Assembly (NCBI GenBank): GCA_963723235.1
Contig: CAVRPV010000019.1
Location: 18,077-82,076, forward strand
Length of the DNA: 64,000 nucleotides
Reading direction: 5' to 3'
From: an uncultured delta proteobacterium
GTDB lineage: Bacteria; Desulfobacterota; WTBG01; CAIYCZ01; CAIRTM01
Under the pieces are notes generated by a model, which saw nothing but the letters and a program-made list of their open reading frames with translations, did not search any database and was not told the DNA's origin. Position 1 is the stretch's first letter. Each line of letters opens with the position of its first letter. Positions 5,337 through 48,500 of this stretch are shown piece after piece. A program made the position numbers and the translations under genes.

Positions 5337-7325
5337 TTGACAGCTGCGCACTCATGCTGCGGCACGAACAACAGCCGCCTGTTGCTCTTTGCCCTGTCCC
5401 TGTTTGTCTACGTATTGCTTGTCATTACGGGTAAAAACATCGGCCATACCGCCGCCGCAGCTTTTTTCCCGGTTCTCACCGCTGCTGTATGCTGGGGCTG
5501 GAAGGCAGGACTTGCCGCAGGCCTGTGCTCCTTTCCCGTCAACGCATTGCTCCTGACCGCCATCGGCCTTAACTGGCAAGTCGGCATGCTCAACCCGATA
5601 GGCCTTACGGGCCATGTTTTTTTTATCCTTGCAGGACTGCTCATCGGCTTCACCCGCGACCTGTATGCTGCAGCGCAGGGATCGAAGCAGCGCCTTGAAG
5701 AAAAAATATTGCAGCGCACCGCTGACCTTGAACGCGCGCAAGCCGCCGAAGAGCAACTTGAAGCCGTGCTGGAGCAGTCGGCAGACGCTGTGTTCATCAC
5801 CGAAAGGGACACCGAAAAAATCATCATGGTCAACCGCGCCCTGCTTGAGCTTACGGGCATGCGCCGCGAGGACCTGATCGGCAACAAGCCTTACTGCTTC
5901 ATGCCCGAGGTCGGCACAACCTACCGCACCACGCTGGGGGACAAGATCACGATTGATATGCAGTACTATGAACAACTCTACCTGTCCCAGCAGAAGCTGT
6001 TGAGCGACGGCATGATCAGAGACTGGGAATACTATGTCATCAACAGCCGGGGCGAGCTTGTTCCGGTTGAGGCCAATGTCACCCATCTGCTTGATCAGCA
6101 GGGCAGGCGCACAGGCGCGATCTCGATGGTGCGCGACGTCACCAGCCGCAAACTCGCCGAGCGCGAGCTCAGCCTGACCAATGATTTTCTAAACAACCTC
6201 ATCGAAAACTCGATCGACTGCATCATTATCAGCGACAGCACCGGCCATATCACGAACATCAACCGCGCCGGCCTTGCGCTGACGGGCTATGCACTTGAAG
6301 ACATGCTCGGCAAAGACCCCCATGGCAATGTCTTCTGTTCGAGGAAGGCCGCTACGAAACCACGTCCGGCGAACAGATATGGCTGAGCAGGGAAGACATT
6401 GAAAGCAGCTACGCACGCATGGGAGATTTTCTGCGAGACGGTAAAATCAGCAACTACGCTTCCTACATCAAGCACAAAGACGGCCGCCTGATAGAGGTCG
6501 AGCACAACATCACCATGCTCTACGACCAGCAGGGCGCTCCCGTGGGCTCGGTGAGCATGACGCGCGACCGAACCATGCACCGCCGCATGGAACGGGAGCT
6601 GAGCAGGCAGAGCGAACTGCTGAGCCAGGCCAACCGCGAGCTTGAAAGCTTTGCCTATTCCGTATCACACGACCTGCGGGCACCCCTGCGCAGCATCAGC
6701 GGATTCAGCGAAGCGCTTGAGGAAGATTTCGCGTCAGTGCTGCCCGGTGAAGCCAAAACCTATCTGCAGCGCATAAAGAATGCCTCCGGGCGCATGGGGC
6801 TGCTCATCGACGACCTTCTGAAACTCTCGCGCGTCAGCCGCTATGACATGCGGCGCGAGCAGGTGAACCTGAGCGCTCTTGCCGAAGACATTGTGGCTCA
6901 GCTGCGCGAGCACGCCCCTGATAGACAGATTACCTGCACTATTGAGCCCGGCATGACGGTGCCGGGAGATGAAAACCTGCTGCGCATACTGCTTGCAAAC
7001 CTGATTGAGAATGCCTGGAAATATACGGTCCGGCAGGACAATCCTGAGATGTCCTTCGGCCGCGCGGACGAAGCCGATCCCCGCGCCCCCGCACAGGAGC
7101 GCAGCCGCCCGATATTTTGCGTACGCGATAATGGCGTTGGATTCGATATGGCTTATGCCGATAAGTTGTTCAGCTGCCTTTCAGCGCCTGCATGCTGAAC
7201 AGGATTTCCCCGGCACGGGCATCGGGCTTGCCACAGTGCAGCGCATCGCACACCGGCACAACGGCCGTGTCTGGGCCGATAGCAAACCCGGACACGGAGC
7301 GCGATTTTACTTCACCCTTGGATAG
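5337..7325 (+). pseudogene. PAS-domain sensor histidine kinase split over three frames (2 frame breaks)
   Basis: ORFs 5337..6386, 6419..7198 and 7005..7325 together give a membrane region, PAS repeats, HisKA (SVSHDLRAPLRSISGF) and HATPase (DNGVGFD ... [11 protein letters not shown]). Frame breaks near 6320-6340 and 7165-7175. An ATG at 5311 in another frame hints at an uncertain start. Confidence 0.8.
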
Positions 7326-8412: not shown

Positions 8413-9864
8413 ATGGCATTGCAAATCCTCTCACCCCTGTCAGTACCCGATGAAGTCGAGCCCCTTATTGAAGCCGGGGCCGGGGCATTCTATTGCGGCA
8501 TTCTGCCGGAAGAGTGGCGCCGGGATTACAGCGTAGCCGCCTCGCTCAACCGCCGTCAGGAAAACACCCCGGGCCTGAACACCAGCCCGCACATGAACAC
8601 CTTTGAGGACCTCGCCCGCTGCGTGGAGCTGGCCCGGCCGCACAACGTGAAGGTGGCAGTCACCCTCAACGAGCACTACTACAGCAACAAACAGTATTCG
8701 TTTCTGACCGGCTATATTGAACAGTGTCTCAAAGCCGGGGCCGATACCTTTATCGTGGGCGACATCGGCATGATTTTGACCCTGCAGGACATTGACCCCG
8801 GCATCACTATACACATCAGCACGGCCGGAACGGCCTTTAATTCTGAAAGTGTGCATTTCTACCGCGACCTCGGGGCCAAGCGCGTTATTTTGCCACGGCA
8901 CCTGACTTTGGATGAAATCCAGGCCATAGTCGACAAGACCAGCGGCATTGAACTGGAAGCATTCATCCTGAACTCGCGCTGCGCCAACATCGACGGTTTC
9001 TGTACGTTCCAGCACGGCCTGGCCGAATTCGTCAAGGAGCCCGAGCGCAAGCGCGACTATGAAAACGCCTGCATGATGCTCTATAAAATAACCGCAGACG
9101 TCAAAGGCTGCGACAGCCAGGAGCAGGCCGAATCGATGCTGCAAAAAGTCTCCTGGGAGCGCCAGCACTTCTGGTCGGCAGTGCATATTGATGACCGGCC
9201 CTGCGGCGCCTGCGCCCTTTACGAATTTGAACGCATGGGCCTGGCCGGAGTCAAAATCGTGGGCCGGGGCAATACCTTCGACAAAAAGATCAAGGACGTG
9301 CGCTTTTTAAAAGGGCAGCTCGACTACCTGCGCACACAGAATCCGACCAGAAAAGAATTTCGCGAGCAGACGCGCAAAATCTACAAAGAAATCTATGACT
9401 GCGTGTGCCTGATTTTCAAATGTTACTATCCCTCGGTCCTGCTGGACGAGGAAAAGGTAGCTGAAAAACACCCGTCTGCAGCGTTGCGCTCATCATTCGT
9501 CACTGCGGCGTACCATAAATACGCCTCATTCCTCATGATTTCGTGCGCCTTGCATCCGAACATTTTTCAGCAACCTTTAATGGCAATCTTTAATAGGCAT
9601 GTATTGTCACCGTGGAACCCTCATATCTTTCAGCCCACAAAAACGGAACGCTTGCTGCCCGCATTGAAATGGCCCTTGATGCTCTCGCGTGCTGCGAAAT
9701 GTGTCCGCGCTGCTGCCGGGTCGACCGCACGGCCGGCAAAACCGGCATATGCAAAACCGGCCGCAACGCAATTGTTGCAAGCTTTGCTCCGCATTTCGGC
9801 GAAGAAGCACCTCTTGTCGGCCGCTACGGCTCAGGCACCATATTCTTCAGCAACTGCAACCTGA
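8413..9864 (+). CDS. Peptidase U32 family protein; 3' end uncertain because the ORF reads through a repeat
   Basis: U32-like N-terminal barrel sequence and Cys motifs (NSRCANIDGFCTFQHG, DRPCGACALYEF). After about codon 350 the frame runs through family-1 copy B and 253 nt into the next gene, so the real C-terminus is probably near 9460. Confidence 0.65.
   Translation: MALQILSPLSVPDEVEPLIEAGAGAFYCGILPEEWRRDYSVAASLNRRQENTPGLNTSPHMNTFEDLARCVELARPHNVKVAVTLNEHYYSNKQYSFLTGYIEQCLKAGADTFIVGDIGMILTLQDIDPGITIHISTAGTAFNSESVHFYRDLGAKRVILPRHLTLDEIQAIVDKTSGIELEAFILNSRCANIDGFCTFQHGLAEFVKEPERKRDYENACMMLYKITADVKGCDSQEQAESMLQKVSWERQHFWSAVHIDDRPCGACALYEFERMGLAGVKIVGRGNTFDKKIKDVRFLKGQLDYLRTQNPTRKEFREQTRKIYKEIYDCVCLIFKCYYPSVLLDEEKVAEKHPSAALRSSFVTAAYHKYASFLMISCALHPNIFQQPLMAIFNRHVLSPWNPHIFQPTKTERLLPALKWPLMLSRAAKCVRAAAGSTARPAKPAYAKPAATQLLQALLRISAKKHLLSAATAQAPYSSATAT
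9460..9575 (-). repeat. Family-1 element, copy B (reverse orientation)
   Basis: The reverse complement reads GGTTGCTGAAAAATGTTCGGATGCAAGGCGCACGAAATCATGAGGAATGAGGCGTA...GTACGCCGCAGTGACGAATGATGAGCGCAACGCTGCAGACGGGTGTTTTTCAGC. Confidence 0.85.
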
Positions 9865-12199: not shown

Positions 12200-12236
12200 A
12201 TTTACACAAGTCCAAATTCTAAAACATGCTTACCCG

Positions 12237-12358
12237 GGCTGTTCAAAAATGCTCAGATGCAAGGCGCACGAAGTCATGAGGACATGAGGCGTACTTTTCC
12301 GTACGCCGCAAAGACGAATGATGAGCGCAACGCAGCAGATGGGCGTTTTTCAACAGCC
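12237..12358 (+). repeat. Family-1 element, copy C (basic variant)
   Basis: GGCTGTTCAAAAATGCTCAGATGCAAGGCGCACGAAGTCATGAGGACATGAGGCGTACTTTTCCGTACGCCGC...CGCAGCAGATGGGCGTTTTTCAACAGCC. The last base overlaps the stop codon of the downstream minus-strand gene. Confidence 0.9.
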
Positions 12359-13328
12359 TAGACATGATTTCGCAGCTTGAGCTCCATTGGATGCGGGTTC
12401 AGATAATACTGCCCGGCCAGGTAGGCCTCGCCGTATTTGCGAACATAGTGGTTTATCAAGGTTACCGGCACAATCAGGGGCACCTGCTCGCAGTGATACT
12501 GCTCAATAATCTCCAGCATTTCCTTTTTTTCATCCGGCGAAAGCTGCGTCTTGAAATAGCCCATCATGTGCTGCAGCACGTTGACATGCTTTTTGACTGT
12601 TGGCCTTCAATGCCAGTGCCTCCATCAACAGCGCTTGGTAGCGTGCGCGCGCCTCAACTGTCTTGAGGGCCTTGCCCTGCGCCACAAGTCGGCCCATCTC
12701 GCGGTAATGCATTGTACTGTGAGATAAAATCAGCAGTTTATGCCGGGTATGGAAGTCAATAACTGCGCCGGCACCGGAACCGGCGGCAAGCATCGCGCGC
12801 CAACGCTGGTAGACAAAGATACGCTCGATGAAATTTTCGCGCAGCACCGGATCGTGCAGACGGCCTTCTTCCTCGCAGGGCAACAGGGGAAAATGCTCCA
12901 TGAAGGCCCGCGCGAACATGCCCACCCCGTTGTGCGCCGGGATGCCGTTCTCTTCGCTGTATACCTTGACGCGCTCCATGCCGCTGCTGGGGGATTTGCT
13001 CTTGAAGATAAAGCCGCACAGGTCTTCTGCCTCAAGCTCGCGCACACGTCATGCGGGCCCAGGACTGCATCTGTGCGGTAAGGTCTTTCTTCGTGCTGAT
13101 CGTAACCAGGCGCGGAGCATCGGCAGTGCCCACAAGGCGCATGGCCTCGCGCGGCACGGAAAGTCCGCATTCCACCTCGGGGCATACGGGCACGTAGGTT
13201 ACGTAGCGGCCGAGCGTGTCGGTCAGGAACCGGTCGTGCTGATGTCCGCCGTCATAGCGCACATTCTGGCCCAGCAGGCAGGCGCTGATGCCCAGGCGAA
13301 TCGGCGATGAATTATCATTGAATTCCAT
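12358..13328 (-). pseudogene. DUF523 (YbbK/TudS-like) + DUF1722 fusion protein, two frame breaks
   Basis: Three ORFs (13032..13415, 12530..13045, 12358..12579) join into MEFNDNSSPIRLGISACLLGQNVRYDGG... / RELEAEDLCGFIFKSKSPS... / VKKHVNVLQHMMGYFKTQLSPDEKKEML... Breaks near 13046-13050 and about 12603. ATG at 13328. Confidence 0.75.
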
Positions 13329-13421: not shown

Positions 13422-14740
13422 TTACGGTACAACTTCAATCTCACCAAAGCAGCTTCCAACCCAAATCGGAACAGTGCCCGGCCTGAGACCTGCAGGCACA
13501 ATCGCCTCAACCTTCAGGCGGTTCTTTTTCCTGTTAAAGGACTTTTTCCTCCATGTAAGCGGACCCAGATCAATCCGGGAGTACATATCAAAGTCCTCAT
13601 CGCCGGTGATCTCCAATACAACCTTTCTGGGTTTAAACAGTTTCGCGTACTGTATCTTTTTATGCTCGATATCCAGCGCGCACGCACCAACGCATTCTGT
13701 TGTTTCAGGATAATGCGCAAGGGCATCCAGCTTTTTTTCATCCGGCTCAAAAAAGGAGAATGTCTTGCCAATCAACGTACGATTAAGCTCATAGGTATAA
13801 TCAATAAAGTCGCCTGCAACATTGCCCGACAGATCTTCCTGAACATCCAAAACCCTGACAGGCGTTTGGCAGGAAAAATCAAAAGAGCTCATATCAAAAT
13901 ATCGAATGTTTGTATTATCAATCGTATGAAAACTAATGCGGCGATGCTGCACATCGTAGGCGATACTCCATTGGTTGATCGCGAGCCTTGTCAGATTTAA
14001 AATATTAAATGTGTAATCAATTGCAGGTCCGGATGTTTCCGGATCATAGTCTTCCAGCATCTCCGCTGCCGTACAAAAATTTCACCGAAGAAGGCATATC
14101 CGCCACTTGTATCTCTTCATTTTCGCAATATTCGAGTTCTGTCGAATATATGTCGTTTCTAAGCATTTTAACAGGCATCGTTTCCTGTGCTGTTTGATGC
14201 ACCACCAATACTCCATCGAGGAACTCAATAGAGGCACAATTCCCCAGACTGTCACATATAAAAAAGTGATATTGCCGCCTGGCCGCTGATTCTCATTTCT
14301 GCATCGCTTGCGATCACATCTGCCACTGTCGCTGCAGTGTCAAGCTGATACTGAACCCATTGGATGGCTGGAATGGCCGGACGTGCATCAGGAGCCGGAT
14401 ATTCGGTTTGTTCAAGATACATGGCGCTGACGACTAAGCCGGCTTCATTCATCCCTTCAAAGGCAAATTCCCGTCCCCAGGGATTGAATGTTACGCTGCC
14501 GTATTTTGAGGTCCAGCTTACAGGCTTTCCCCCGGTCCAATCCCGGGGTAAAACGGCTATTTTTGAGACATTTCTTTTGTTGACGATTATTAAACCATCA
14601 CTGGTAAGCCAGTCAAAATTTTTACCGACCACGAGTTCATCATGGGTATCGAGACAGAACGTTGTACATGCATGGCTGGCTTGCGGCAGGAAAACTGCAA
14701 TAAAGATACAGCAGAAAAAAAATAGTCGTTGGTATTTCAT
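13422..14740 (-). pseudogene. Choloylglycine hydrolase / linear amide C-N hydrolase (Ntn) family protein, two frame breaks
   Basis: Signal peptide followed by a nucleophile Cys (SHACTTFCL). The ORF 14252..14740 stops, and the middle part HFFICDSLGNCASIEFLDGVLVVHQT... is in a third frame. ORF 13422..14060 supplies the C-terminal half. Breaks near 14265 and 14058. The gene is visibly AT-richer than its neighbours. Confidence 0.75.
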
Positions 14741-23699: not shown

Positions 23700-23714
23700 G
23701 CTGCGTGTCCTTTA

Positions 23715-23892
23715 GGGTGTTGTAAAAGTCTTTTTTTACAGGCTGTTCAAAAATGCGCAGATGCACAGGCGCCCGATATCATTTGTAAGGGCACGGCATG
23801 CCGTGCCCTTACCGTACGCCGCAGTGATCCCGCCATGGCGGGAATAAGCGCAATCCCGCTGCAGCGGGACAGGTGTGCTTTTTTCAACAGCC
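23715..23892 (+). repeat. Family-1 element, copy E (palindrome module + two GGGA hairpins)
   Basis: Outer arm GGGTGTTGTAAAAGTC and left arm at 23741. GTAAGGGCACGGCATGCCGTGCCCTTAC at 23785..23812. TCCCGCCATGGCGGGA and TCCCGCTGCAGCGGGA hairpins. Right arm ends at 23892. Confidence 0.9.
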
Positions 23893-24071
23893 TTCGCGAG
23901 GGCACATTATACCAGTAAACGCACTTCATATCCACAGTTCACTGACATCACGCCAAAAAAACCGCTCACGCTCCGGCCTTTCAATTTTCTTTGCGAACCG
24001 GTAAACAGTCAAGTATACTGTTCCCCGCAACTGCCGCACAACAGACCCATGCTCTATGAAAGGACCATCGA

Positions 24072-25076: not shown

Positions 25077-25225
25077 AGGCTGATGAAAAAGTCTCTTTAC
25101 ACAGGCTGTTCAAAAATGCATAGATGCAAGGCGCGCGCAATCATGAGGAATGAGGCGTACTTACCGTACGCCGCAGTGACGAATGATAAACGCAACGCAG
25201 CAGATGGGCGTTTTTCAACAGCCTG
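25077..25225 (+). repeat. Family-1 element, copy F, flanked by a perfect 16-bp direct repeat
   Basis: Left arm at 25104 and right arm ending at 25225. ATAGAGGCTGATGAAA occurs at 25073..25088 and again at 25226..25241. Confidence 0.9.
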
Positions 25226-25252
25226 ATAGAGGCTGATGAAACGAAAGGACGT

Positions 25253-25753
25253 GTGATGCTGCTAAAAAAATTATTGGCCCTGCTGATTGTATCCATCGCC
25301 ATACTATCCATGTGCGCAGGCTGCCAGACGCTCCCGCAACCGCCAAAGCCGGATCACCGGGTCACTGAACAGGTGCCCGCCGCGCAGGATATCACCGGGC
25401 CTGCTCCTGGGCAGGCTCCGCCGCAGTCCGCCGTGGGAACCGCCCGCTACTACGCCAACCGCTTCAACGGCAAAAAAACAGCTTCGGGTGAAGTGTTCAA
25501 CCAGAAAAAATTGACCGCCGCCCACCCCACCCTGCCGTTCGGCACGCTGGTGAAAGTCGAAAATCTCGCCAACGGCATATCCGTCATCGTCAAGGTCAAT
25601 GACCGCTGCCGCAAGCATGAGCAAGTTTTTATTGACGTATCACGCGAGGCCGCACTCGAACTCGGCTTTATCAGGCAGGGCACGGCCAAGGTCAGACTGA
25701 CCGTTCTTGCAAATAATCCATCAAGCGAAGTTCCGGCTGCCTCGAAGGATTAA
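25253..25753 (+). CDS. rlpA: RlpA-like lipoprotein (double-psi beta-barrel domain)
   Basis: Lipobox LSMCAGC. GTARYYANRFNGKKTASGEVF...AAHPTLPFGTLVKVENL...VKVNDR. Confidence 0.88.
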   Translation: MMLLKKLLALLIVSIAILSMCAGCQTLPQPPKPDHRVTEQVPAAQDITGPAPGQAPPQSAVGTARYYANRFNGKKTASGEVFNQKKLTAAHPTLPFGTLVKVENLANGISVIVKVNDRCRKHEQVFIDVSREAALELGFIRQGTAKVRLTVLANNPSSEVPAASKD

Positions 25754-25890
25754 AGGCCAGTCCTAGAGTGCGTTGCGCACCATTCACAGCCGCATTACCG
25801 ACGATGTGTATGGCGCGCCCTACGCACTGTCAATTAAATTAATGGATGTCCGCTGTTGACGCATGAAAAGCTGCTCACCGAAACGCGGCT

Positions 25891-25932
25891 GAAAAAGGCA
25901 AGGCTACGCTGCGGACATGCAGCATAGCCTTG
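25891..25932 (-). terminator. Rho-independent terminator candidate for the metallophosphoesterase gene
   Basis: On the minus strand: CAAGGCTATGCTGC-ATGTCC-GCAGCGTAGCCTTG (14-bp stem, 1 G:U pair) followed by CCTTTTTC, 30 nt after the stop. Confidence 0.6.
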
Positions 25933-25961
25933 TTGGGTGGGGTGGTGCTTTGAAAATGGAA

Positions 25962-27626
25962 TTACAGCAGCGGGGCGCCTTCCACAATAACGACAAGTGC
26001 CGGCGCATTGCCGGCGTGGCTGGTGAGGAAATCCCAACCATCGGTGCTGTTGTTCAGCATGGCCCAGCCGTAGTTGGTCTCGCCGTCAGCCCATGCCTGT
26101 ATGGATTTCGTGACATCCACGATGAACGGCGTCGGAAACCCCTTCGGGCAGCTAAACGCCGTATCGCTTTCGCTCAGGGCTTCGATATCGTTTGCTTCAA
26201 CACCGCCGCCGACCATGACGGTCTGCGTCACAAATTGCTTGGTTTTGGGATCATAAAAGGTGACATCGTGCCAAGTGACAGGCTGGGGGGTGAAATCGTA
26301 CCAGGTCGACTTCTCGGTGAACGGCATCAGCATCCGGTGAAAGTTGATAGTGCCAGCCGTCGAGCTCGTTGCTTCGAAAAGTATTTTAGCCGAGGTAATG
26401 GTCGAGCCGGCTGGTATCTGGCCGGGGCCGTTGCCGATGATGCCGGTGAAGGCGAGCAAGCCGTTCACCCGCGAGCCCGAGTCGTCCAAGTCGGTCGTCA
26501 GCGTCATCTCTCCGCCATAGTCAAGGCCTGGATTATTTTCGTTGATTTGAGAGTCGATTGTCCCTTCGTAGCCATTAAGGCGCTCCTGGAAAATATGGGT
26601 CGCCGGTTCGGTAATGGGGTCGGCGGGGGGCAGAGGCGGCCGTTCGGGCTCGTCACCGAAATCATACCTGCTCCAGCGCTTGAATCGCTGTTTCAGATTA
26701 GTGGTAAAGGCGAACTGGCTGTCATCATCCGTTTCGAAATAGGGATCAACGGTTATGATATCCCCATCGTCATCAATGGTGAAGCCGGGGGAAAAGGTTT
26801 TCACCGAAATGGTGCCGTTATCCTCGTTTATGCGAATGAGGCGCATCAGGCCGTTGCCGCCGTTATCGCGGTCCTGGTAGTCGGAAAGCATCTGATAGAC
26901 CGGCTTGTTGTCATCATTATGGGACACGAAGGCGTATTCGGTATGCGTATGACCGTTGAGCACCATGAAAATGCGGGGGTTTTCCCTTATGAATTCATCC
27001 CAGATGATTCGGCCCGTGGGGCCTCTGCCGCCGTACATGACATAATCATGCGTCGAGACAATCACGGGCATGGAACGGTATTTTCTTTTATCCATGATGG
27101 ACTGGGCCCACGAAAAGGCCTCCGCGTCGGGGTCCTTTTGGAAATTTATGTGCAGGAATCTGCGATTTCCCGCCCTGAAGACTTGCGCATGGTTGAGCTT
27201 GTTTGGCGAGGAGCCGATATACCACTTTTTCCCCGCGTAGCTCTCGGGGCCGAGGTATTCTGCAAACTCGGTGCCGTCATGATTACCCTGGCAGATCGAA
27301 TAGGGAAAATCGTCAGGCGCATCGAATAGAGGATCAAGCGCCCACATCGCATTGTTCCACTGCTCCGTGTCGCCTGCGTTATCGACGACATCGCCCAAAT
27401 GCGTCACGAAAACAATATTCTCATTTTTCCTGTTTGCGAGAATCCAGTCAATCTGTGCCTTGAAAATTGGAGTCAGCGCGCTTTCCTCGCTGTAGACCTG
27501 CGTATCGGGAATAGCGACTATAGTGAAGGTTTTCTTGGACTTTGAAGCGCCGCAGACTGCCGGATATGCAGCCAGGGCCAGGAACAAAACAGCCAAGCAT
27601 GTACTGGTTATTTTTCTCATAATCAA
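25962..27626 (-). CDS. Secreted calcineurin-like metallophosphoesterase with a C-terminal DNRLRE-like domain
   Basis: 554 aa. Signal peptide, then IPDTQ, HLGDVVD and QGNHD phosphoesterase motifs. I am less sure of the identity of the C-terminal beta-rich domain. Confidence 0.8.
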   Translation of the reverse strand: MIMRKITSTCLAVLFLALAAYPAVCGASKSKKTFTIVAIPDTQVYSEESALTPIFKAQIDWILANRKNENIVFVTHLGDVVDNAGDTEQWNNAMWALDPLFDAPDDFPYSICQGNHDGTEFAEYLGPESYAGKKWYIGSSPNKLNHAQVFRAGNRRFLHINFQKDPDAEAFSWAQSIMDKRKYRSMPVIVSTHDYVMYGGRGPTGRIIWDEFIRENPRIFMVLNGHTHTEYAFVSHNDDNKPVYQMLSDYQDRDNGGNGLMRLIRINEDNGTISVKTFSPGFTIDDDGDIITVDPYFETDDDSQFAFTTNLKQRFKRWSRYDFGDEPERPPLPPADPITEPATHIFQERLNGYEGTIDSQINENNPGLDYGGEMTLTTDLDDSGSRVNGLLAFTGIIGNGPGQIPAGSTITSAKILFEATSSTAGTINFHRMLMPFTEKSTWYDFTPQPVTWHDVTFYDPKTKQFVTQTVMVGGGVEANDIEALSESDTAFSCPKGFPTPFIVDVTKSIQAWADGETNYGWAMLNNSTDGWDFLTSHAGNAPALVVIVEGAPLL

Positions 27627-27843
27627 GCCTCCTGAAAAAGTGAATGTGTGCGATTCCTTGCTGAAAAAATATTTTCTGATTCAGAATAGCTCCGCATTGT
27701 TAATGCTTTTTAAGCAGCTGGTTAAATTCATCACAAAAAAACGTTAATATACATGCCTATAAAAGAGTATATTTTGATTAAATCGAAGTAATGTCGACCA
27801 ATTGGAGGGCGGCGGGATGCACCGCCCCCGGTGGAATCAGTTC

Positions 27844-28162
27844 TGGGAACCGCCCGCTACTACGCCAACCGCTTCAACGGCAAAAAAACAGCTTCGGGTG
27901 AAGTTTTCAGCCAGAAAAAATTGACCGCCGCCCACCCCAGCCTGCCGTTCGGCACACTGGTGAAAGTCGAGAATCTCGCCAACAGCCTATCCGTCATCGT
28001 CAAGGTCAACGACCGCTGCCGCAAGCACGAGGAAGTCTTTATTGATGTGTCACGCGAAGCCGCGCTCGAACTCGGCTTTCTCAGGCACGGCACGGCCAAA
28101 GTCCGGATTACCGTTGTTAAAATAATCCACCAGACAAAGTTTCGGCAACCGTGCAGGATTAA
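27844..28162 (+). pseudogene. 5'-truncated, frameshifted duplicate of the rlpA 3' two-thirds
   Basis: Collinear with 25434..25753 at roughly 90 percent identity (hand count). It lacks the signal peptide and lipobox. A 1-nt gap near 28116 shifts the frame, and the homologous GGATTAA stop is at 28156..28162. Confidence 0.8.
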
Positions 28163-28172
28163 CTGCTACCGG

Positions 28173-28359
28173 GGTGTTGAAAAATTCTTTTTATACAGGC
28201 TGTTCAAAAACGCACACATGCAAGGCGTGCTATATCATTTGTAGGGGCACGGCATGCCGTGCCCCTACCGTACGCCGTCCTGTCCCGCTCTGCGAGGAGA
28301 GACGAATGATGAGCACAATCCCGCTGTAGCGGGACAGATGGACGTTTTTCAACAGCCTG
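28173..28359 (+). repeat. Family-1 element, copy G (longest; palindrome module + extra hairpins)
   Basis: Outer arm GGTGTTGAAAAATTC and left arm at 28198. GTAGGGGCACGGCATGCCGTGCCCCTAC at 28241..28268. TCCCGCTGTAGCGGGA hairpin. Right arm ends at 28359, directly abutting the TerC stop. Confidence 0.9.
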
Positions 28360-29100
28360 CTATTGCGGATAACTTTTGTGCAGCTCCACGGGCTCGCTGT
28401 TTTTGCGCATGCGCAAATTAAGCGTTTCCACAAAAATTGAAAAAGCCATGGCAAAATAAATATATCCCTTGGGGAAATGAACTTCAACGCCTTCGGCCAC
28501 CAGCGTCGTGCCGATCAGCAGCAGAAAGCTGAGCGCCAGCATTTTTATGGTCGGGTGGCTGTCGACGAAGCGGCTGACCTTGCCGACCGCGAACATCATG
28601 ATAACAACGGAAATAACCACGGCCAGCACCATGATGCTTACCCGGCTGGCAAGCCCTACCGCTGTAATGACCGAGTCAAGCGAGAAGACAATATCAAGCA
28701 GCATGATCTGCACGAGTATGCCCGCAAATGATGCCGCAACCCGCTTGACCTGAACATGTTCTGTCTCGCCCTCCAGCTTATCATGAATCTCAGACGTACT
28801 TTTGCCGATCAAAAAAAGTCCGCCGATAATCAGTATCAGATCGCGCCCTGAGATCTCATTGCCCACAACCGTAAAAAGGGGCGCTGACAGCCGCATAATC
28901 CACGTCAGCGACAACAGGAGCAGAATACGTGAGAGCATGGCAAGCCCCAGACCGATCACCTTGGCTTTTTCCCGCTGTTCATGTGGCAGCTTGCCGGCCA
29001 AAATCGTTATGAACACGATATTGTCGATGCCCAGCACGATTTCCAGTGCCGTTAAGGTGAGAAGCGATATCCAGGCCTGCGTTTCAAAAATCCATTCCAT
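28360..29100 (-). CDS. TerC family integral membrane protein
   Basis: 246 aa. LEIVLGIDNIVFI and LDIVFSLDSVITA repeats typical of TerC/YoaE. Confidence 0.88.
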   Translation of the reverse strand: MEWIFETQAWISLLTLTALEIVLGIDNIVFITILAGKLPHEQREKAKVIGLGLAMLSRILLLLSLTWIMRLSAPLFTVVGNEISGRDLILIIGGLFLIGKSTSEIHDKLEGETEHVQVKRVAASFAGILVQIMLLDIVFSLDSVITAVGLASRVSIMVLAVVISVVIMMFAVGKVSRFVDSHPTIKMLALSFLLLIGTTLVAEGVEVHFPKGYIYFAMAFSIFVETLNLRMRKNSEPVELHKSYPQ

Positions 29101-29201
29101 GACTACCCCATTCTTATATTGAGTATTGGTATTGCATAAAGGGAGACAGCCGCACTTTATGCCCGATAAAAGGGCACAGCCGCACCCTTTTGTTAGAGAG
29201 C

Positions 29202-29600
29202 TTATTCTGCGATTCTTCCGTCTCGAACATACAGGACTATCAGCACCGCGAGATACATCCCGATCGCACCTGTCTGCAACCAGTAGGGCAGTGTTGACTG
29301 GCTTTCTAAGAGTACCGAGGCAAGAGCGTCCGACAGATTAACCGCGCCCAGCCCAAGAACCGTAAGAGCGAGTACGACAATGGCGCTCAGTGCAACGGAG
29401 CGATGCCGCGCTGCAGAGTAAAACAGCGCGATATACGCACATACCGCAAAGGAAATGATCTTATCCTGATAGGCGTAATACGGCGTATCGTAGTATACAA
29501 AAAGAACCGGCACTTTCAGGCCAAAGAAATGTGCCAGTGCCATGCAGCTGAAATACACAACACCGGCCCAAAATGCATACTGTGTTGGCTTTGAATTCAT
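29202..29600 (-). CDS. Hypothetical membrane protein (4 predicted TM helices)
   Basis: ORF with hydrophobic helices. Start taken at MNSKPTQYAFWAGV (29600). I recognise no family. Confidence 0.5.
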   Translation of the reverse strand: MNSKPTQYAFWAGVVYFSCMALAHFFGLKVPVLFVYYDTPYYAYQDKIISFAVCAYIALFYSAARHRSVALSAIVVLALTVLGLGAVNLSDALASVLLESQSTLPYWLQTGAIGMYLAVLIVLYVRDGRIAE

Positions 29601-29717
29601 AAACGTTCTTCGCGCACATTGTATGGTTCCGCCGCATTGCTGCGGCTCAGGCGCGGCCACTTGCCGTCGCCTGCATTCGTCGTGTTTTATTTAAGGCGCG
29701 GCTCTATTTAATCTTCA

Positions 29718-29799
29718 CACCTTCTTACAACAAATCCGCTTCGCTACCTTACACAATATCTACGCACGATCTGTTCTGCTCCAATCATCTTTTTGCGGT
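29718..29799 (-). pseudogene. Remnant duplicate of the nitroreductase gene 3' end plus downstream flank
   Basis: Aligns to 31415..31494. The minus strand 29749..29803 reads YHRKKMIGAEQIVRRYCV*, against FYRKKMLEAEQVVRRYFVR* at the end of the intact gene. Confidence 0.7.
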
Positions 29800-29858
29800 G
29801 ATATTGGGGAACGGTTTTAATATTGCCTGGACCAAATATATTAATGAAAGTTAGCGGA

Positions 29859-31364
29859 TTAACATCCGCAAAATGGCAGCTGCGATGCATACATTGATCG
29901 CCAGTATTTTGCCTGATAATTTTCAGGCCTGATGCTTTTATGCTTTATACGACGCCAGAGCTTTTCCAGATTTCCATATTCTATCCAGTCATCCTCAACA
30001 AAGCCTTCATTGTTAATGTCCGCCTCTCCCATTCGTCTTAAAATTACAGTACTGCTTTCCTTATTTCCCTCAACCACCCATCCCGGAACGCTCAGCTTGA
30101 CGCTATAGTCCCGGCACTCAATCGGTAAAGGCTGAAGCGTGGATTGCCAATAATCACTGTCTTCTGCAAACGAGAGCGCAATGATAAGAGACCGCAGGGA
30201 CCACAAGCAACTGCCCTGACCGGAATATTGATCCAGCAGACGTTCATCAGCTCCACAATATCCCTGCGTCACCGTTCCTGCCCTTAAGGCTCCGTTACGA
30301 ATGAAGTACTGCCAGGTCACATCCATAGCTCGTCGTGCTAACCCGGGCGAGATTAATTTCGAATTTTTATCTGCTGCAATCAAGAGTGGCACTGGCAAAG
30401 CTATGCGATAACAAATACTCCTGCCATAAATGGGAAACCCCGCCGTACTAAATAAATACTGATAATCCTCTGCGAAACGAGTTGTGGCTTTTGTAATAAA
30501 CTCGAGATCCAGCTCTGGCCTGATTTTGCTTAACCAATAAAGTGCGTAGTGTATTCCCCAGGCATTGTAATAATCAAAACGCTCTCCTTCCCTGACCCCA
30601 TCTGTAAACCACCCGTCACCCCGATAAAACTTTTTGATGGATTGATAGTGGTCATCCAATAGCTTCGGGCTGCCCTCTGTACGCCGCAAATCGATCAGCA
30701 CGGCATTAACTAACACAACAAAAAGATGCCAGTTGTTATCTGGGACTCTCTTCTTGTTCACCTGTGCCAACCATCTTGCAATACGCGTTTGCTGCTTTGG
30801 AGCCAGCACATCCCACACCTGTTTTCGCGTTAACCACAGCGTTAAGGCCACATCAGCGGCCTCTACAATGCGCTGATCCCCATGTTTCATTTGACCCCAA
30901 TACTCTCCGGATTGTGGATTCGTCCCCGCAACAATGGCGTCTCTGAGAGTTTTCGCCAAGTCAATCGTTCCGCCATCTTGCAGGTTGAGCTGGTTTGGTC
31001 GACCTGCATATAGCCAGGCACCCATTAAGGGCGCCATACGGGTAAAGCCTTCAACTCTATCGATGAGGCTGCCGTGCGAACTGGGAAGGCCGGGATAATT
31101 TACCAGTGCGCCCGCTTTGCTGCGGTAAAACTGGTACCCCTCGACGAAATACTGAAAAATTGCCTCATAACTTTCAGGGCTATGCTGCTTATCCTGATAA
31201 AAATCAGAGATTAGCTGCTCCCGTTGGGCTGGATAATTCTCGGGGAAAGGTACTGCTCTGAAAGGATATTGGTAAATCCTCCAGCTTACCAGGGACACTA
31301 TACCCAATATCAACAATGCAATGACAGCCAACCTATAACGATCCAAAGTCGCCATGTGTTGCAA
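29859..31364 (-). CDS. DUF2264 domain-containing protein
   Basis: 501 aa. N-terminal TM anchor and DUF2264-like sequence (…RVEGFTRMAPL…, PDNNWHLF, YGRSICYR). Visibly AT-richer than the surrounding genes. Confidence 0.7.
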   Translation of the reverse strand: MQHMATLDRYRLAVIALLILGIVSLVSWRIYQYPFRAVPFPENYPAQREQLISDFYQDKQHSPESYEAIFQYFVEGYQFYRSKAGALVNYPGLPSSHGSLIDRVEGFTRMAPLMGAWLYAGRPNQLNLQDGGTIDLAKTLRDAIVAGTNPQSGEYWGQMKHGDQRIVEAADVALTLWLTRKQVWDVLAPKQQTRIARWLAQVNKKRVPDNNWHLFVVLVNAVLIDLRRTEGSPKLLDDHYQSIKKFYRGDGWFTDGVREGERFDYYNAWGIHYALYWLSKIRPELDLEFITKATTRFAEDYQYLFSTAGFPIYGRSICYRIALPVPLLIAADKNSKLISPGLARRAMDVTWQYFIRNGALRAGTVTQGYCGADERLLDQYSGQGSCLWSLRSLIIALSFAEDSDYWQSTLQPLPIECRDYSVKLSVPGWVVEGNKESSTVILRRMGEADINNEGFVEDDWIEYGNLEKLWRRIKHKSIRPENYQAKYWRSMYASQLPFCGC

Positions 31365-31414
31365 ATTATCCCCGCCTGAAACAGTTCATCTCGCCCATGC
31401 GACTTGCTAATCGC

Positions 31415-31494
31415 CACCTTCTTAAAACAAGACCTACCTTACCTGACAAAATACCTGCGCACGACCTGCTCGGCTTCAAGCATCTTTTTGCGGT
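31415..31494 (-). repeat. Partner of the 29718..29799 direct repeat (authentic nitroreductase 3' end + flank)
   Basis: CACCTTCTTA...CTACCTTAC...CATCTTTTTGCGGT is shared with 29718..29799. In the 43-nt coding block I count 7 mismatches. Confidence 0.7.
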
Positions 31495-32209
31495 AAAAGG
31501 CAAGCTGCTTGTCGAAGTTTGAAAGCGGGTGGCCGATTTTGAAGCCGATGAACATCTGATCGAACCAATCCCGAAGCATGCCTTTGCACGCTGCGTTGTA
31601 GCACTGCGGCATGACCACGGCATCGCGCGGCTGGCGCGGCGGTATGCCCGGCATTTTCAAGGACCCCTTGCCCAACACCAGCGTTGTAAGCGGCAGCACG
31701 CCTTCAGGCAACGTAAGCTTTTCCACAAGAAAGGCGATGTCGAGCAAGCCGGTACGCCCGGTTTCAGACAGCATGATGCTTTGTATGCCCAGGGCCTCAG
31801 CCGCCAGGTTCATGCTCATGGCGGCGAGCCCCGCGTTAAAAACAGCCAGGCTCATGTTGATCGCGGGAGTCTCTGCAAAATCGCTGAAGAGCTCGCTCAG
31901 GCGGTTCTGGTCGGCGCAGATGACTATAGCATACGTGCCCTTGAACGGAATCGGCCGCTCAAAGGTCTGATGCCATTGAGAGCGGTCAAAGGTAATAAAC
32001 GACCAGGTCTGCAGGTTGACCGTGCTGGGCGCGAACCGGCCCGCATCCAGAATAGCGTCAAGGTCCTGCGGCGAAATGGCACCGGGTGCGAAGCTGCGGC
32101 AGCTGCGGCGACTGAAGATAAGCTTCAGCGTTTCGGGCAGGTCAGTGCGGGATGCCGAGGGCGCAGCGCCCGTAAACAGGGCCAGAAAATTTTTTATCGC
32201 TCGAAGCAT
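31439..32209 (-). CDS. Nitroreductase family protein
   Basis: 256 aa. RRSCRSF...PSTVNLQTW motif characteristic of the nitroreductase fold. Confidence 0.8.
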   Translation of the reverse strand: MLRAIKNFLALFTGAAPSASRTDLPETLKLIFSRRSCRSFAPGAISPQDLDAILDAGRFAPSTVNLQTWSFITFDRSQWHQTFERPIPFKGTYAIVICADQNRLSELFSDFAETPAINMSLAVFNAGLAAMSMNLAAEALGIQSIMLSETGRTGLLDIAFLVEKLTLPEGVLPLTTLVLGKGSLKMPGIPPRQPRDAVVMPQCYNAACKGMLRDWFDQMFIGFKIGHPLSNFDKQLAFYRKKMLEAEQVVRRYFVR

Positions 32210-32244
32210 AGAATATTACCAATAAAGCAGTAAATTTACCTTCA

Positions 32245-32323
32245 GTCATTCCGGCGAAAGCCGGAATCCAGGGGACTCCGATAAACACAGAAGCACTGGA
32301 CACCGGTTTTCACCGGTGTGACG
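32245..32323 (+). repeat. Family-2 twin-hairpin element
   Basis: GTCATTCCGGCGAAAGCCGGAATCC ... GGACACCGGTTTTCACCGGTGTGACG. Confidence 0.85.
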
Positions 32324-32378
32324 ACTGTTGGCATCAGCATTAATACTCGCAGCATGGCACATGCACGCACATTCAGTT

Positions 32379-33069: not shown

Positions 33070-33234
33070 GCGCGTAAATTCCTGTCTGCAGTTGGCCTGG
33101 GATTGCCGAACATGATTTCACGAGCACGACGGGCTTGTCAATAAGGAATTGATTTTATGAGGGTTTTTTTATAAGATGGGTCAATTTTAACGCACCGTAC
33201 TAACTACTGAGCAAAGACGCAAAAGCACCTGACA

Positions 33235-33393
33235 GGATATTGAAAAAGTCTCTTTGTACAGGCTGTTCAAAAATGCGCAGATGCAAGGCGCACGAAGTTG
33301 TGAGGAATGAGGCGTACTTTTCGTACGCCGCAATGACGAACAATGAGCGCAATCCCGCCATGGCGGGACAGATGCGTGTTTTTCAACAGCCTG
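33235..33393 (+). repeat. Family-1 element, copy H
   Basis: Outer arm GGATATTGAAAAAGTC and left arm at 33261. GGCGTACTTTTCGTACGCC hairpin and TCCCGCCATGGCGGGA hairpin. Right arm ends at 33393, 25 nt before the valS ATG. Confidence 0.9.
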
Positions 33394-33418
33394 CTAATCA
33401 CCTGAAAACGGACATAAC

Positions 33419-36941: not shown

Positions 36942-36976
36942 TGCACCGATGCTCTCGATTGCAGGATCGCGTTAAC

Positions 36977-37123
36977 AGGTACTAAAAATGTATCTTTTTC
37001 AGGTTGTTCAAAAATATCTGGATGCAAGGCGCGCGAAGCCGGGAGAAATGAGGCGTACTTTCCGTACGCCGCAATGAAAAACGGCGAGCGCAACGCAGCA
37101 GACGGGTATTTTTCAACAACCTG
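36977..37123 (+). repeat. Family-1 element, copy I (diverged arms GGTTGTTC / CAACAACC)
   Basis: Both arms carry the complementary change (GGTTGTT ... AACAACC) relative to the consensus GGCTGTT ... AACAGCC. Confidence 0.85.
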
Positions 37124-37150
37124 CCAAACTCCCGAAGAACGGTGAATACT

Positions 37151-37915: not shown

Positions 37916-37947
37916 AAAGGTTCAACTTTGACGGTCACACAAAAGTT

Positions 37948-38026
37948 CGTCACACCGCTGAAAACCGGTGTCCAGTACTTTCGCAAGATCCGGTAATTCC
38001 TGGATTCCGGCTTTCGCCGGAATGAC
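37948..38026 (-). repeat. Family-2 twin-hairpin element (reverse orientation)
   Basis: CGTCACACCGCTGAAAACCGGTGTCC ... GGATTCCGGCTTTCGCCGGAATGAC. Confidence 0.85.
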
Positions 38027-38070
38027 GGGAAACAGACAATCCGGTCTTCAAGAAGAAGTATCAACCTACC

Positions 38071-38234
38071 GCTGAAAGTTTATTAAGATAAATCGGTTCG
38101 GGCTGTTCAAAAATGTTCAGATGCAAGGCGCGCGAAGTCATGAGGAATGAGGCGTACTGTTGCGTACGCCGCAAAGACGAATGACGAGCGCAATCCCGCC
38201 ATGGCGGGACAGATAAGCGTTTTTCAACAGCCCG
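38071..38234 (+). repeat. Family-1 element, copy J
   Basis: Left arm at 38101, GGCGTACTGTTGCGTACGCC hairpin, TCCCGCCATGGCGGGA hairpin, right arm TTTTTCAACAGCCCG ending at 38234. Confidence 0.88.
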
Positions 38235-38250
38235 CTAAGAAAGGATTTCA

Positions 38251-39984: not shown

Positions 39985-40018
39985 CGCACCTGCAAAAAGT
40001 CTGAAAATGCTATTTTCA

Positions 40019-40097
40019 GTCATTCCGGCGCAGGCCGGAATCCAGAAATCTCAGCCACGTAGAAAGACACTGGACACCGGCCTTCACCGGTGTGACG
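40019..40097 (+). repeat. Family-2 twin-hairpin element
   Basis: GTCATTCCGGCGCAGGCCGGAATCC ... GGACACCGGCCTTCACCGGTGTGACG. Confidence 0.85.
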
Positions 40098-40122
40098 AAT
40101 TTTGCTAAATCATCAAAGCTTA

Positions 40123-40207: not shown

Positions 40208-40363
40208 GGATGCGGAAAAAGTACTTGATATGGGCTGTTCAAAAATGCCCGGGTACAAGGCGCGTGATGTCATTTGTAAGGGCAAGGCATGCCGTGCCCC
40301 TACCCTAGCACGGTGAGCACAATCCCGCCATGGCGGGATAGACGGACGTTTTTCAACAGCCCG
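40208..40363 (+). repeat. Family-1 element, copy K (palindrome module)
   Basis: Left arm at 40233. GTAAGGGCAAGGCATGCCGTGCCCCTAC at 40276..40303. TCCCGCCATGGCGGGA hairpin. Right arm ends at 40363, 7 nt from the SDR stop. Confidence 0.88.
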
Positions 40364-40370
40364 CCCCCAC

Positions 40371-46981: not shown

Positions 46982-48206
46982 AACCATATCAGGTAATATT
47001 TTTGACCTGTTCGCCCGCCTTGACCACGAACAGGATGTCTGCCTGCTGGCAGGCACGCACCCCGGCCTGCTCGGGTTTAACCCGGCAGAAACGTTCAGCG
47101 CTGTCAATGCGGACATCAAGGGCCTGCGTGCCTTTGTAACACGCAGCGCGCGCCTGGGGCGGCCCGTGACCGGCTATATATCCTATGACGCGGCCTATGA
47201 GCTGCACAATCTTCGCTGCACAGCCCACAACGATTTGCGCCTGCCAGCTATCTGTTTGCATGCCTACGACAACTATCTCACGTTCACCGGAAAAAAAACG
47301 CTGCGCCTGCACTTTAAAAACCCGGCCTATCCTGAACTGATCAAGCGCATTCTCAACCGGCCGCTGCGCCCCGCTCGCGCATACCGCAGCACGAATTTTC
47401 ACCCCGTAATCAGCGCTGCCCAATACGCGCGCGCCTACGACGCCATCCGGCAGTATCTCTATGAAGGCGATCTGTATCAAATCAATTTCAGCCATCGCCT
47501 TGAAGCCAAAACCGACATGCCGGCCCGTGAACTGTTTGTGCGGACCCTGCACCACAACCCGGTTGACTTTCCGGCCTATTTCGAGGCAGAAGGTTTTGAA
47601 ATTATCAGCGCATCGCCTGAGCGCTTTATAAAAATTGACGGCCGGACGATCGAAACCTGTCCCATCAAAGGCACGCGGCCGCGGGGCCGCACCTCCGCAA
47701 CGGATGAGCGCTATCGCCGGGAGCTTCTGGAAAACGCCAAGGAAACCGCCGAGCTGAACATGATCATCGATCTGATGCGCAATGACCTGGGCAAGGTCTG
47801 TGAAAGCGGCTCTGTCCGCGTTCGCGGCCGCAGGCTTGTGAGCGCCTGTCCGACAGTATGGCACACATTCGCGCGCATTACCGGATGCCTCAATGATACC
47901 GGTAGCGCACTTGACGCACTTGTGAGCATGCTGCCGGGAGGGTCCATCAGCGGATGCCCCAAGAGAAGGGCCATGGAAATAATTGACGAACTCGAGCCGG
48001 TTACCCGCTCAGTGTACACAGGGGTTATCGGCTGCATTCAGCCCGATATGCGGCTTGATTTCAGCATCGCGATTCGAACCATTATCAAAAAACACACCCG
48101 GCTGTACCTGCCGGTCGGCGGCGGCATTGTCCATGACTCGAAACAAACGGCTGAGTTCAGGGAGACGCTTGACAAGGCCCGCTCGTTCATGAAAATCCTG
48201 CAATAG
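46971..48206 (+). CDS. pabB: Aminodeoxychorismate synthase component I (chorismate-binding enzyme, short form)
   Basis: 411 aa. SASPERF, PIKGTRPRG and PGGSISGCPK motifs. The assignment to pabB comes from context. Confidence 0.75.
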   Translation: MQTKTISGNIFDLFARLDHEQDVCLLAGTHPGLLGFNPAETFSAVNADIKGLRAFVTRSARLGRPVTGYISYDAAYELHNLRCTAHNDLRLPAICLHAYDNYLTFTGKKTLRLHFKNPAYPELIKRILNRPLRPARAYRSTNFHPVISAAQYARAYDAIRQYLYEGDLYQINFSHRLEAKTDMPARELFVRTLHHNPVDFPAYFEAEGFEIISASPERFIKIDGRTIETCPIKGTRPRGRTSATDERYRRELLENAKETAELNMIIDLMRNDLGKVCESGSVRVRGRRLVSACPTVWHTFARITGCLNDTGSALDALVSMLPGGSISGCPKRRAMEIIDELEPVTRSVYTGVIGCIQPDMRLDFSIAIRTIIKKHTRLYLPVGGGIVHDSKQTAEFRETLDKARSFMKILQ

Positions 48207-48324
48207 AACACATTAACCTTGAAATGCCCGGTCTCAGGTTGAGAAACAGAAGTTGCTTCGCAATCGGAGCGATATTGCTATTGGGGTTGCTCGGCAATGA
48301 ACCCGTGGCGTCTCAGCAGGCAAT

Positions 48325-48398
48325 GTCACCCCGCACGTGATGCGGGGTCCATGACAAACCCCTGGATTCCGGATCGCGCTACGCTTGTCCGGAATGAC
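48325..48398 (-). repeat. Family-2 twin-hairpin element, sequence variant
   Basis: GTCACCCCGCACGTGATGCGGGGT ... GGATTCCGGATCGCGCTACGCTTGTCCGGAATGAC. Confidence 0.7.
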
Positions 48399-48500
48399 CG
48401 TAAAGAGTTATACAGTTGTAAACACACAGAGCAGTCTCAACATTAAAATGCAAAAAACCGCACAAACACCCTGCCCTGCTTTACTGTAACCATCTTTTTA

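Follow-up and report, generated by a model that had tools for sequence, protein, structure and literature searches.

The subject of this analysis is a single gene of the DUF2264 family that lies behind a nitroreductase (NR) gene in a contig of an uncultured deltaproteobacterium (CAVRPV010000019.1, assembly GCA_963723235.1, positions 18,077 to 82,076), together with the two short direct repeats that enclose it. The whole 64-kb stretch is referred to as the window, and all coordinates count from its first letter. Both repeats correspond to the 3' end of the NR gene; the proximal one is named copy B and the distal one copy A. Read from the NR gene outwards, the features at the site, all on the minus strand, are as follows; the empty-site loci are described further below.

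31439..32209 (-): intact NR gene, nitroreductase family, 256 aa (open reading frame, ORF; Pfam PF00881, E 8e-17)
31415..31494 (-): copy B, the functional NR end, with the last 18 codons, the stop and a 24-nt flank; short 'type-1' post-stop variant
31365..31414 (-): 50-nt insert-specific spacer upstream of DUF2264; homology to the empty-site loci ends after ...AAGAAGGTG
29859..31364 (-): intact DUF2264 (PF10022) gene, 498-501 aa, the sole cargo; full-profile Pfam match
29800..29858 (-): 59-nt insert-specific spacer downstream of DUF2264; no homology to NR loci or to other DUF2264 loci
29718..29799 (-): copy A, a displaced, non-functional NR 3' end; long 'type-2' post-stop variant
29744-29803 (-): pseudo-ORF within copy A, translated as YHRKKMIGAEQIVRRYCVR and a stop
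29661..29717 (-): native NR downstream flank (TGAAGATTAAATAGAGCCG...), now parted from NR by the insert; the same motif directly follows the single NR end in L001, L021 and L034
29202..29660 (-): small membrane ORF, 132-152 aa, lineage-specific, between the remnant and TerC and part of the variable NR-TerC interval

The initial annotation had reported that the 80 nt at the NR end (31415-31494) recur at 29718-29799, and a repeat search of the window, BLAST and a shuffle test all show the recurrence to be real. The repeat search recovered a block of 55 nt (29745-29799 versus 31440-31494, 84 % identical) and a second block of 16 nt (29718-29733 versus 31415-31430, 94 % identical), which are shifted relative to each other by a 2-nt indel also found in a MAFFT alignment. 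Gapped BLAST aligned copy A with copy B at 79 % identity over 82 nt (E 1e-12 to 1e-13). The best 55-mer match has 46/55 positions identical, against a maximum of 32/55 and a mean of 29.1 in 200 shuffles of the 64-kb window. The repeated segment consists of the last 18 codons, the stop codon and 24 nt of downstream flank of NR, and its edges are sharp on both sides. Blocks without mismatch, of 14 nt (ACCGCAAAAAGATG) and 10 nt (TAAGAAGGTG), lie at the repeat ends, and no inverted repeats or stable hairpins were found there. The protein that reads through copy B ends in ...AFYRKKMLEAEQVVRRYFVR, and at the junction of NR and insert ...AAGAAGGTG is followed by GCGATTAGC. The remnant in copy A can still be translated, as had been noted, though the earlier reading dropped the final R that is present in the full form listed above.

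Between the copies (29800-31414, 1,615 bp) the DUF2264 gene is the only ORF, and the spacers of 59 and 50 nt leave no room for a second gene. The protein matches PF10022 (which appears as 'BcGHD' in the precomputed Pfam annotation) at E 1e-79, scoring 268 bits against a cut-off of 25 and covering profile positions 7-352 of 353. It has a hydrophobic segment at the N-terminus, with the likely ATG at 31355, and its remote relatives in the PDB are a beta-galactosidase (8oi4) and glucuronate dehydratases (9o4u and 9nwf). The insert is AT-richer than its surroundings, as the initial annotation had stated: its GC content is 47.4 %, whereas the window has 54.8 % and NR 57.6 %. The DUF2264 gene itself has 47.7 % GC, and its GC content at third codon positions (GC3) is 0.49, compared with 0.58-0.72 in the neighbouring genes. 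The composition of the insert (GC 47 %, GC3 0.49) is foreign.

Among the homologues of the DUF2264 protein (621 at E<=1e-20), the closest relatives are 57-64 % identical and are found in unrelated contexts, the nearest non-self homologue (64 % identical) lying in a glycosyltransferase/sulfotransferase/ABC cluster. A search for the same cassette with other flanks, which had been proposed as a check, did not find it: the contexts of the five nearest homologues (L006, L007 and L031-L033) share coding similarity only, with no flank homology and no NR gene, and neither IMG/VR nor PLSDB gave a hit. A literature search on 'DUF2264' returned no papers. The gene is co-oriented with NR and starts approximately 75-85 nt past the NR stop. 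Because a terminator scan predicted none between the two genes, DUF2264 is likely to be co-transcribed with NR.

An assembly artefact was considered as a source of this layout and ruled out. A Logan contig of 2,253 nt (L008) is 100 % identical across both copies, both copies recur in this arrangement in a separate lineage (L030, approximately 93 % identical overall), and a third contig, that of P0122, has the same gene order as the window.

Using the NR protein as query, five genome loci and 21 metagenome loci were collected from uncultured deltaproteobacterial or Thermodesulfobacteriota genomes. NR orthologues in more than 20 of these loci are 63-91 % identical and all lie beside HPRT and ValRS, so that the synteny ValRS-HPRT-NR is conserved. 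No DUF2264 gene was found in approximately 20 related NR loci, and no second or duplicated NR end in the 20 loci checked, despite the variety of genes that lie behind NR. In L021 NR is followed directly by TerC, in L024 by an HNH-like ORF and then TerC, in L025, L009 and L034 by a gene of the endonuclease/exonuclease/phosphatase (EEP) family, in L005 by an ATPase gene and in several other loci by a DjlA-like ORF. The small membrane ORF at 29202..29660 has no Pfam or NCBIfam match, is absent from the other NR loci and is present in L030.

The sequence that follows the single NR end in the relatives identifies the original state of the site. Immediately beyond the single end of L001 and L021 comes GAAGATTAAATAGAAC..., which in the window stands after copy A. 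The single end of L034 matches copy B at 77/80 positions, and there ...AAGAAGGTG leads on to TGAAGATTA, again the flank found after copy A in the window. Since the single NR end in L034, L001 and L021 runs into the flank found beyond copy A, these loci are, by alignment, empty sites. On the same continuity, DUF2264 with one 80-nt copy is an insertion into a site that was once contiguous. The empty sites thus bear out the outline given in the initial annotation, namely an insertion behind NR with the intact gene on one side and a displaced copy of its 3' end on the other. The search for single-copy empty sites that it had recommended found approximately 20 orthologous loci without DUF2264, each with one copy of the segment; a remnant without DUF2264 and a decayed NR paralogue, the two cases that it had named as counting against insertion, were both absent from the related loci.

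Approximately 45 nt past the NR stop are conserved across lineages, whatever gene comes next, and have the form TTGTTn, about 17 nt, TAAATA or TATATA, then AGAACCG. This region corresponds to 29661-29743 in the window and to its equivalents in L001, L013, L014, L016, L021, L024, L025 and L034. One guess is that the motif could be a promoter of the downstream gene, and a sigma-70 consensus scan made no call. The insertion junction sits between the two hexamer-like blocks of the motif, and only behind copy A is the conserved stretch that usually lies ahead of the downstream gene still intact.

The two copies of the NR end differ in character. Copy B has 4/56 coding differences from its closest relatives (L009 and L024) and 0/80 differences between the window and L030. 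Copy A has at least nine coding differences from every sequence compared and three unique amino-acid changes (L>I, E>G and F>C). Between the window and L030 it differs at 4/82 positions, each with A/T in one lineage where the other lineage and copy B have G/C. From its unique non-synonymous changes and these A/T-biased differences, copy A is judged to be a neutrally decaying pseudo-3' end.

Directly after the stop codon stands CGAAGCGGAT in copy A and GGTA--GGTC in copy B. Of the two, the long form is also found in L016, L015, L013, L014, L017 and L024, with an identical 11-mer, TAGCGAAGCGG, common to copy A and L016, and the short form is also found in L025, L009, L021, L001, L005 and L034. 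The indel and an 8-mer in the post-stop region therefore divide the copies between two variants, a division that rests on approximately 26 nt. It is suggestive of two different versions of the segment circulating in the clade, and hence of two DNA molecules having been joined, and, being hard to obtain from a single template by decay, it speaks against a simple duplication in place. A further resemblance, the sharing by copy A of GTAAGGTAG with L024 and of GAACAGATC with L025, was weakened when copy A of L030 proved to have the copy-B state at both positions, which makes these probably recent changes in the window lineage.

The DUF2264 insert is not the only duplication-flanked insert in the neighbourhood. 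In a self-comparison of the window, the only gene-end duplications were those of NR and of a DPBB gene, alongside two intergenic repeat families. The DPBB duplication marks a second scar with the same topology, which lies 4 kb from the NR scar and has its cargo in the opposite orientation:

25253..28162 (+): second scar, consisting of the DPBB gene, the insert and the displaced DPBB 3' end
25253-25753 (+): intact DPBB/RlpA-like lipoprotein gene
25962-27626 (-): Metallophos/CBM96 gene, alone in a 2.09-kb insert
27844-28162: displaced copy of the last 320 nt of the DPBB gene, 89 % identical and frameshifted by a 1-nt deletion, then the native flank

L030 and L005 have a single DPBB gene and no Metallophos gene and are empty sites for this insert, and L034 has the Metallophos insert with an identical insert/copy junction. 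At the sites where the two DPBB copies of the window differ, L030 sides with the displaced copy at 23 sites and with the intact one at 14; at seven sites the intact copy and L005 stand apart from the displaced copy and L030. From this agreement the displaced copy looks resident, and the 3' part of the intact DPBB gene looks imported, which makes the case for two source lineages stronger here than at NR. The divergence between the copies is uneven, with 2 differences in the first 96 nt and approximately 35 in the remaining 224 (binomial estimate, p ~3e-4). A crossover inside the repeat, by which the first segments of both copies would be resident, predicts such unevenness, whereas a reciprocal Campbell exchange would predict uniform divergence. 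A donor in which DPBB and Metallophos are natively adjacent was not found (L035, L036 and L037).

Two further segments were seen near these genes in L034. A segment of approximately 260 nt (9874-10134 in L034), between the intact DPBB gene and the Metallophos insert, is 74 % identical to 48204-48451 of the window and is probably a small repeat element inserted after the main event. An 837-nt direct repeat (3446-4280 and 5264-6099, 96.5 % identical) that includes an Exo_endo_phos-family gene brackets TerC, which makes the bracketed TerC a third duplication-flanked segment in the NR-TerC-DPBB neighbourhood and a possible third scar.

The distribution of the two inserts (both in the window, only DUF2264 in L030 and only Metallophos in L034) is not explained by a simple tree. 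A tract at 28233..31495 (no strand), covering TerC, the small ORF, copy A, DUF2264 and copy B, is approximately 99 % identical between the window and L030, against approximately 90-94 % elsewhere. A substitution map gave 3/741 differences in TerC, 18/1506 in DUF2264 and 0/80 in copy B. Upstream of the repeat, NR differs at 43/715 positions (substitutions and gaps together), a separate four-way alignment giving approximately 4 % substitutions outside one variable loop, and ValRS differs by approximately 10-15 %. The contrast at the tract is large even though the L030 counts are soft. A tract of 99 % identity in a background of 90-94 % suggests a recent exchange by homologous recombination in the flanking genes that would have carried the islet with it; its right end would lie at or just within the NR end, and the direction of the exchange is inferred.

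Several local features of this region were also recorded. The left end of the tract (28233) falls within one copy of the longer of the two intergenic repeat families. The gap between the small membrane ORF and TerC (29105-29200), though within the tract, has 35 substitutions and 47 gap positions in 250 nt relative to L030, and holds a 20-nt direct repeat (29136-29155 and 29166-29185). Inside NR, at 31654-31675, the window differs at approximately 15 of 22 nt from L030, L034 and L009; the loop encoded there is GKGSLKM in the window, GRASMSL in L034 and GRATLKM in L009, and the patch is either a hypervariable loop or a patch of micro-recombination.

No sign that the insert is self-mobile was found. 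The initial annotation had noted the absence of a mobility gene, and this was upheld by Pfam scans of seven ORFs around the site, including the insert, and of 40 other large ORFs, which detected no recombinase, integrase or transposase in the insert or the window; the ORFs scanned are ordinary chromosomal genes (NrdD, MnmG, RpoD, DnaG, MutS, Nuo subunits and others). Nor does either syntenic contig, L030 or L034, have an integrase or transposase in its precomputed Pfam annotation. No inverted repeats or stable hairpins were detected at the repeats (fold z-scores of -0.15 to -1.4), and an Rfam scan gave no match. No related integrative and conjugative element (ICE) or integrative and mobilizable element (IME) was found at NR in the relatives, where the downstream genes (EEP, HNH-like, ATPase and DjlA-like) are accompanied by neither an integrase nor a duplicated NR end.

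A number of known element types were examined against these observations and set aside. A transposon or insertion sequence does not fit, there being no terminal inverted repeats and no transposase, and an imperfect duplication of 80 bp far exceeds a target-site duplication. An integron gene cassette is not indicated, with no attC-like palindrome at the insert and no intI among the scanned ORFs of the window, and an integron attC or a rolling-circle hairpin end was ruled out by the lack of a significant fold and of an Rfam match. Elements of the Xer/dif type carry no integrase of their own. Integration of that type was set aside in view of the site, which is a coding gene end with no likeness to dif by eye except for a GTGCGCA heptamer. 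A recurrent att site behind NR was ruled out, as no duplicated NR end occurs in the 20 loci that have other genes there.

On balance we consider, with moderate confidence, that the NR site is a one-off insertion scar generated by recombination, in which the incoming DNA brought its own NR end together with DUF2264 and no dedicated mobility machinery took part. Under this reading DUF2264 would be a horizontally gained single-gene islet, inserted once, 24 nt past the NR stop, in the variable NR-TerC interval. The incoming DNA would have borne, or been joined to, a terminal 56 nt of NR and a 24-nt flank in a version of its own. NR would have been kept intact through copy B, and the resident 3' end (copy A) would have been shifted 1.7 kb downstream with its native flank still attached, to become a pseudo-end that is now decaying. 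The likeliest route appears to be recombination anchored in NR homology, and it could have taken either of two forms. One is a one-sided event combining homologous and illegitimate joining (homology-facilitated illegitimate recombination, HFIR, or '3'-end displacement'), and the other is a RecA-type event in which a circularised fragment enters by a single crossover. After fixation the islet would have passed between related lineages passively, via homologous recombination in the flanking genes. As the second scar involves another gene, a repeat of 320 nt and a cargo in the opposite orientation, general recombination accounts for the pair more easily than would two site-specific systems that have both been lost.

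Some points weigh against an origin by recombination of this kind. No donor was found with DUF2264 natively behind NR and free of the duplication, or with Metallophos behind DPBB. An 80-nt anchor at approximately 80 % identity is a poor substrate for RecA, and the blocks of 14 nt and 10 nt at the repeat ends could be read as crossover cores. The uneven divergence of the DPBB copies could stem from later gene conversion or homologous recombination on the displaced copy. The argument from two variants of the NR end stands on approximately 26 nt of a hypervariable segment and is suggestive. Finally, L030, many of whose genes are fragmented, looks like an error-prone long-read assembly, which makes small substitution counts against it soft.

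The initial annotation had compared the layout to the product of site-specific integration into the 3' end of a gene, and this is the alternative that survives best, although we consider it unlikely. The attP of a small integrating element would have mimicked the NR 3' end, copies B and A would be attL and attR, and the integrase would either have been deleted later, leaving a relic like a cis-mobilizable element (CIME), or act in trans from another part of the genome. The topology is exactly that of e14 at icd (PMC6379469), and CIMEs are att-flanked elements stripped of their integration genes (PMC5704250). The two copies differ after the stop, as attP and attB should, the repeat is perfect at its two ends, over 14 and 10 nt, and single-copy empty sites are present. 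However, neither the 64 kb nor the syntenic contigs L030 and L034 yielded a recombinase, and non-coding flanks of 50-59 nt would require a very clean deletion of everything else. The repeats have no inverted core-type repeats or hairpins and no Rfam match, the cassette was not seen elsewhere, and no other duplication of the NR end occurs in the 20 related loci, though many genes sit behind NR there. The neighbouring DPBB scar, of the same shape, would demand a second, unrelated system that has also been lost. An attL/attR mechanism is thus possible but unsupported here.

Duplication in place appears less probable still. Foreign DNA would have been caught at a break, by end joining or template switching, with an 80-nt target duplication that gave two copies of one resident sequence, after which copy A drifted and one copy was perhaps overwritten by later recombination. 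The coding part of the repeat is compatible with this: over its 56 nt copy A is nearest to copy B and the nearest relatives (9-11 differences), most of the differences are unique to copy A, and the changes between the window and L030 are A/T-biased. The coding divergence of approximately 16 % could be reached by neutral decay in the time since the empty-site relatives split off, the NR genes of L009, L024 and L025 being 87-91 % identical to that of the window in nucleotide sequence. Against it, five events in the 10 nt right after the stop, including the 2-nt indel, would have had to recreate an 8-mer of other lineages, and the remedy of a later recombination requires a tract ending within <=18 nt before the heterologous insert. 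Relative to L030, moreover, unique changes number 23 in the functional DPBB copy and 14 in the pseudogene copy, the opposite of what duplication and decay would lead one to expect.

Descent of the remnant from a decayed second NR paralogue, with DUF2264 ancestral at the site, has in its favour the existence of a second NR-like 3' end and nothing else, and is effectively refuted by the absence of a tandem NR paralogue or DUF2264 from approximately 20 related loci, by a repeat that takes in 24 nt of non-coding flank and is sharp at both ends, by the flank past copy A, which is the orthologue of the single-NR flank elsewhere, and by the foreign composition of DUF2264.

The favoured reading, recombination without dedicated machinery, can be placed among described systems. 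In Escherichia coli, icd stays intact with a replaced 3' end where e14 has integrated, and a 163-bp pseudo-3' end lies on the far side of the element (PMC6379469). As with e14 and phage 21 at icd, the incoming DNA at NR supplies a slightly different 3' end so that the gene stays intact, the resident 3' end is left on the far side as a direct-repeat pseudo-fragment (163 bp there, 80 bp here), and there are single-copy empty sites. Unlike the NR insert, e14 is a prophage with its own integrase and excisionase; here there are 1.6 kb with one metabolic-type gene, no recombinase nearby and no evidence of excision. The insert resembles a CIME in that direct repeats of a target-gene 3' end flank DNA without mobility genes (PMC5704250), but a CIME is recognised through related ICEs or IMEs that share its att specificity and occupy its site in relatives, and there are none in the 20 NR loci. 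It shares with an integron cassette the lone ORF, the very short flanks and boundaries formed by similar sequences of approximately 80 nt, and differs in having neither an attC-like imperfect palindrome nor intI and in that a conserved gene supplies, with its coding 3' end, one of the boundary repeats.

Another parallel is offered by the orphaned 3' ends behind new modules in type VI secretion system (T6SS) and Rhs loci, which have been ascribed to HFIR-like events (PMC5361080). At HFIR-type T6SS, Rhs and contact-dependent inhibition (CDI) loci, the upstream part of the gene serves as anchor, a new 3' end and cargo come in, and the former 3' end, together with the DNA behind it, is moved back and not deleted (PMC5361080). 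The corresponding order, an intact gene with an alternative 3' end, the cargo, and then the displaced old end with the old downstream DNA, is seen at both the NR and the DPBB scars. Such displacement needs no recombinase and allows arbitrary repeat length and cargo orientation, as in both scars here. The T6SS, Rhs and CDI loci differ in being polymorphic-toxin loci under diversifying selection, while here the genes of a nitroreductase and an RlpA-like lipoprotein, both ordinary, are the anchors and an enzyme gene is the cargo; HFIR is a hypothesis in those loci and here alike. More broadly, and only tentatively, the lineage may repeatedly gain single genes on its core chromosome by recombinase-independent '3'-end displacement' (the two scars here and the possible third in L034), the islets then spreading by flanking homologous recombination, or else the 80-bp segment may be a true att site of a trans-acting recombinase that mobilises single-gene cassettes.

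Elsewhere in the window, the longer of the two intergenic repeat families has copies of approximately 100-180 nt that are 72-89 % identical and occur in both orientations, as well as in L001, L030 and L034. It may be an element like a miniature inverted-repeat transposable element (MITE) or a repetitive extragenic palindromic (REP) sequence, and its copies lie at:

2975-3075, 9455-9579, 12230-12359, 23714-23893, 25078-25228 and 28172-28362
33232-33411, 36975-37142, 38097-38238, 40225-40364 and 59036-59121 (further copies)

The shorter family has copies of approximately 90 nt, 78-80 % identical, at 32241-32330, 37942-38035 and 40010-40104, one of them between NR and HPRT. Two adjacent ORFs at 13422-14740 have an unusually low GC3 (0.45-0.47), one of them being a truncated fragment of the choloylglycine-hydrolase family, and this segment may be another that is foreign or decaying.

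The NR site is an insertion scar of a known kind and a fairly ordinary one, to which the twin scar and the signs of spread by flanking recombination add modest interest; it reveals no new kind of mobile element, and these data do not establish the function of DUF2264. It is a clean natural case in which one foreign gene has been added behind a conserved gene without disrupting it, and related uncultured genomes show the site both filled and empty, along with the displaced 3' end in decay. The second scar and the non-tree-like distribution of the inserts in three lineages provide material for the study of gene gain without a recombinase, and for environmental bacteria they illustrate a way in which homologous recombination in the flanks can spread small islets.

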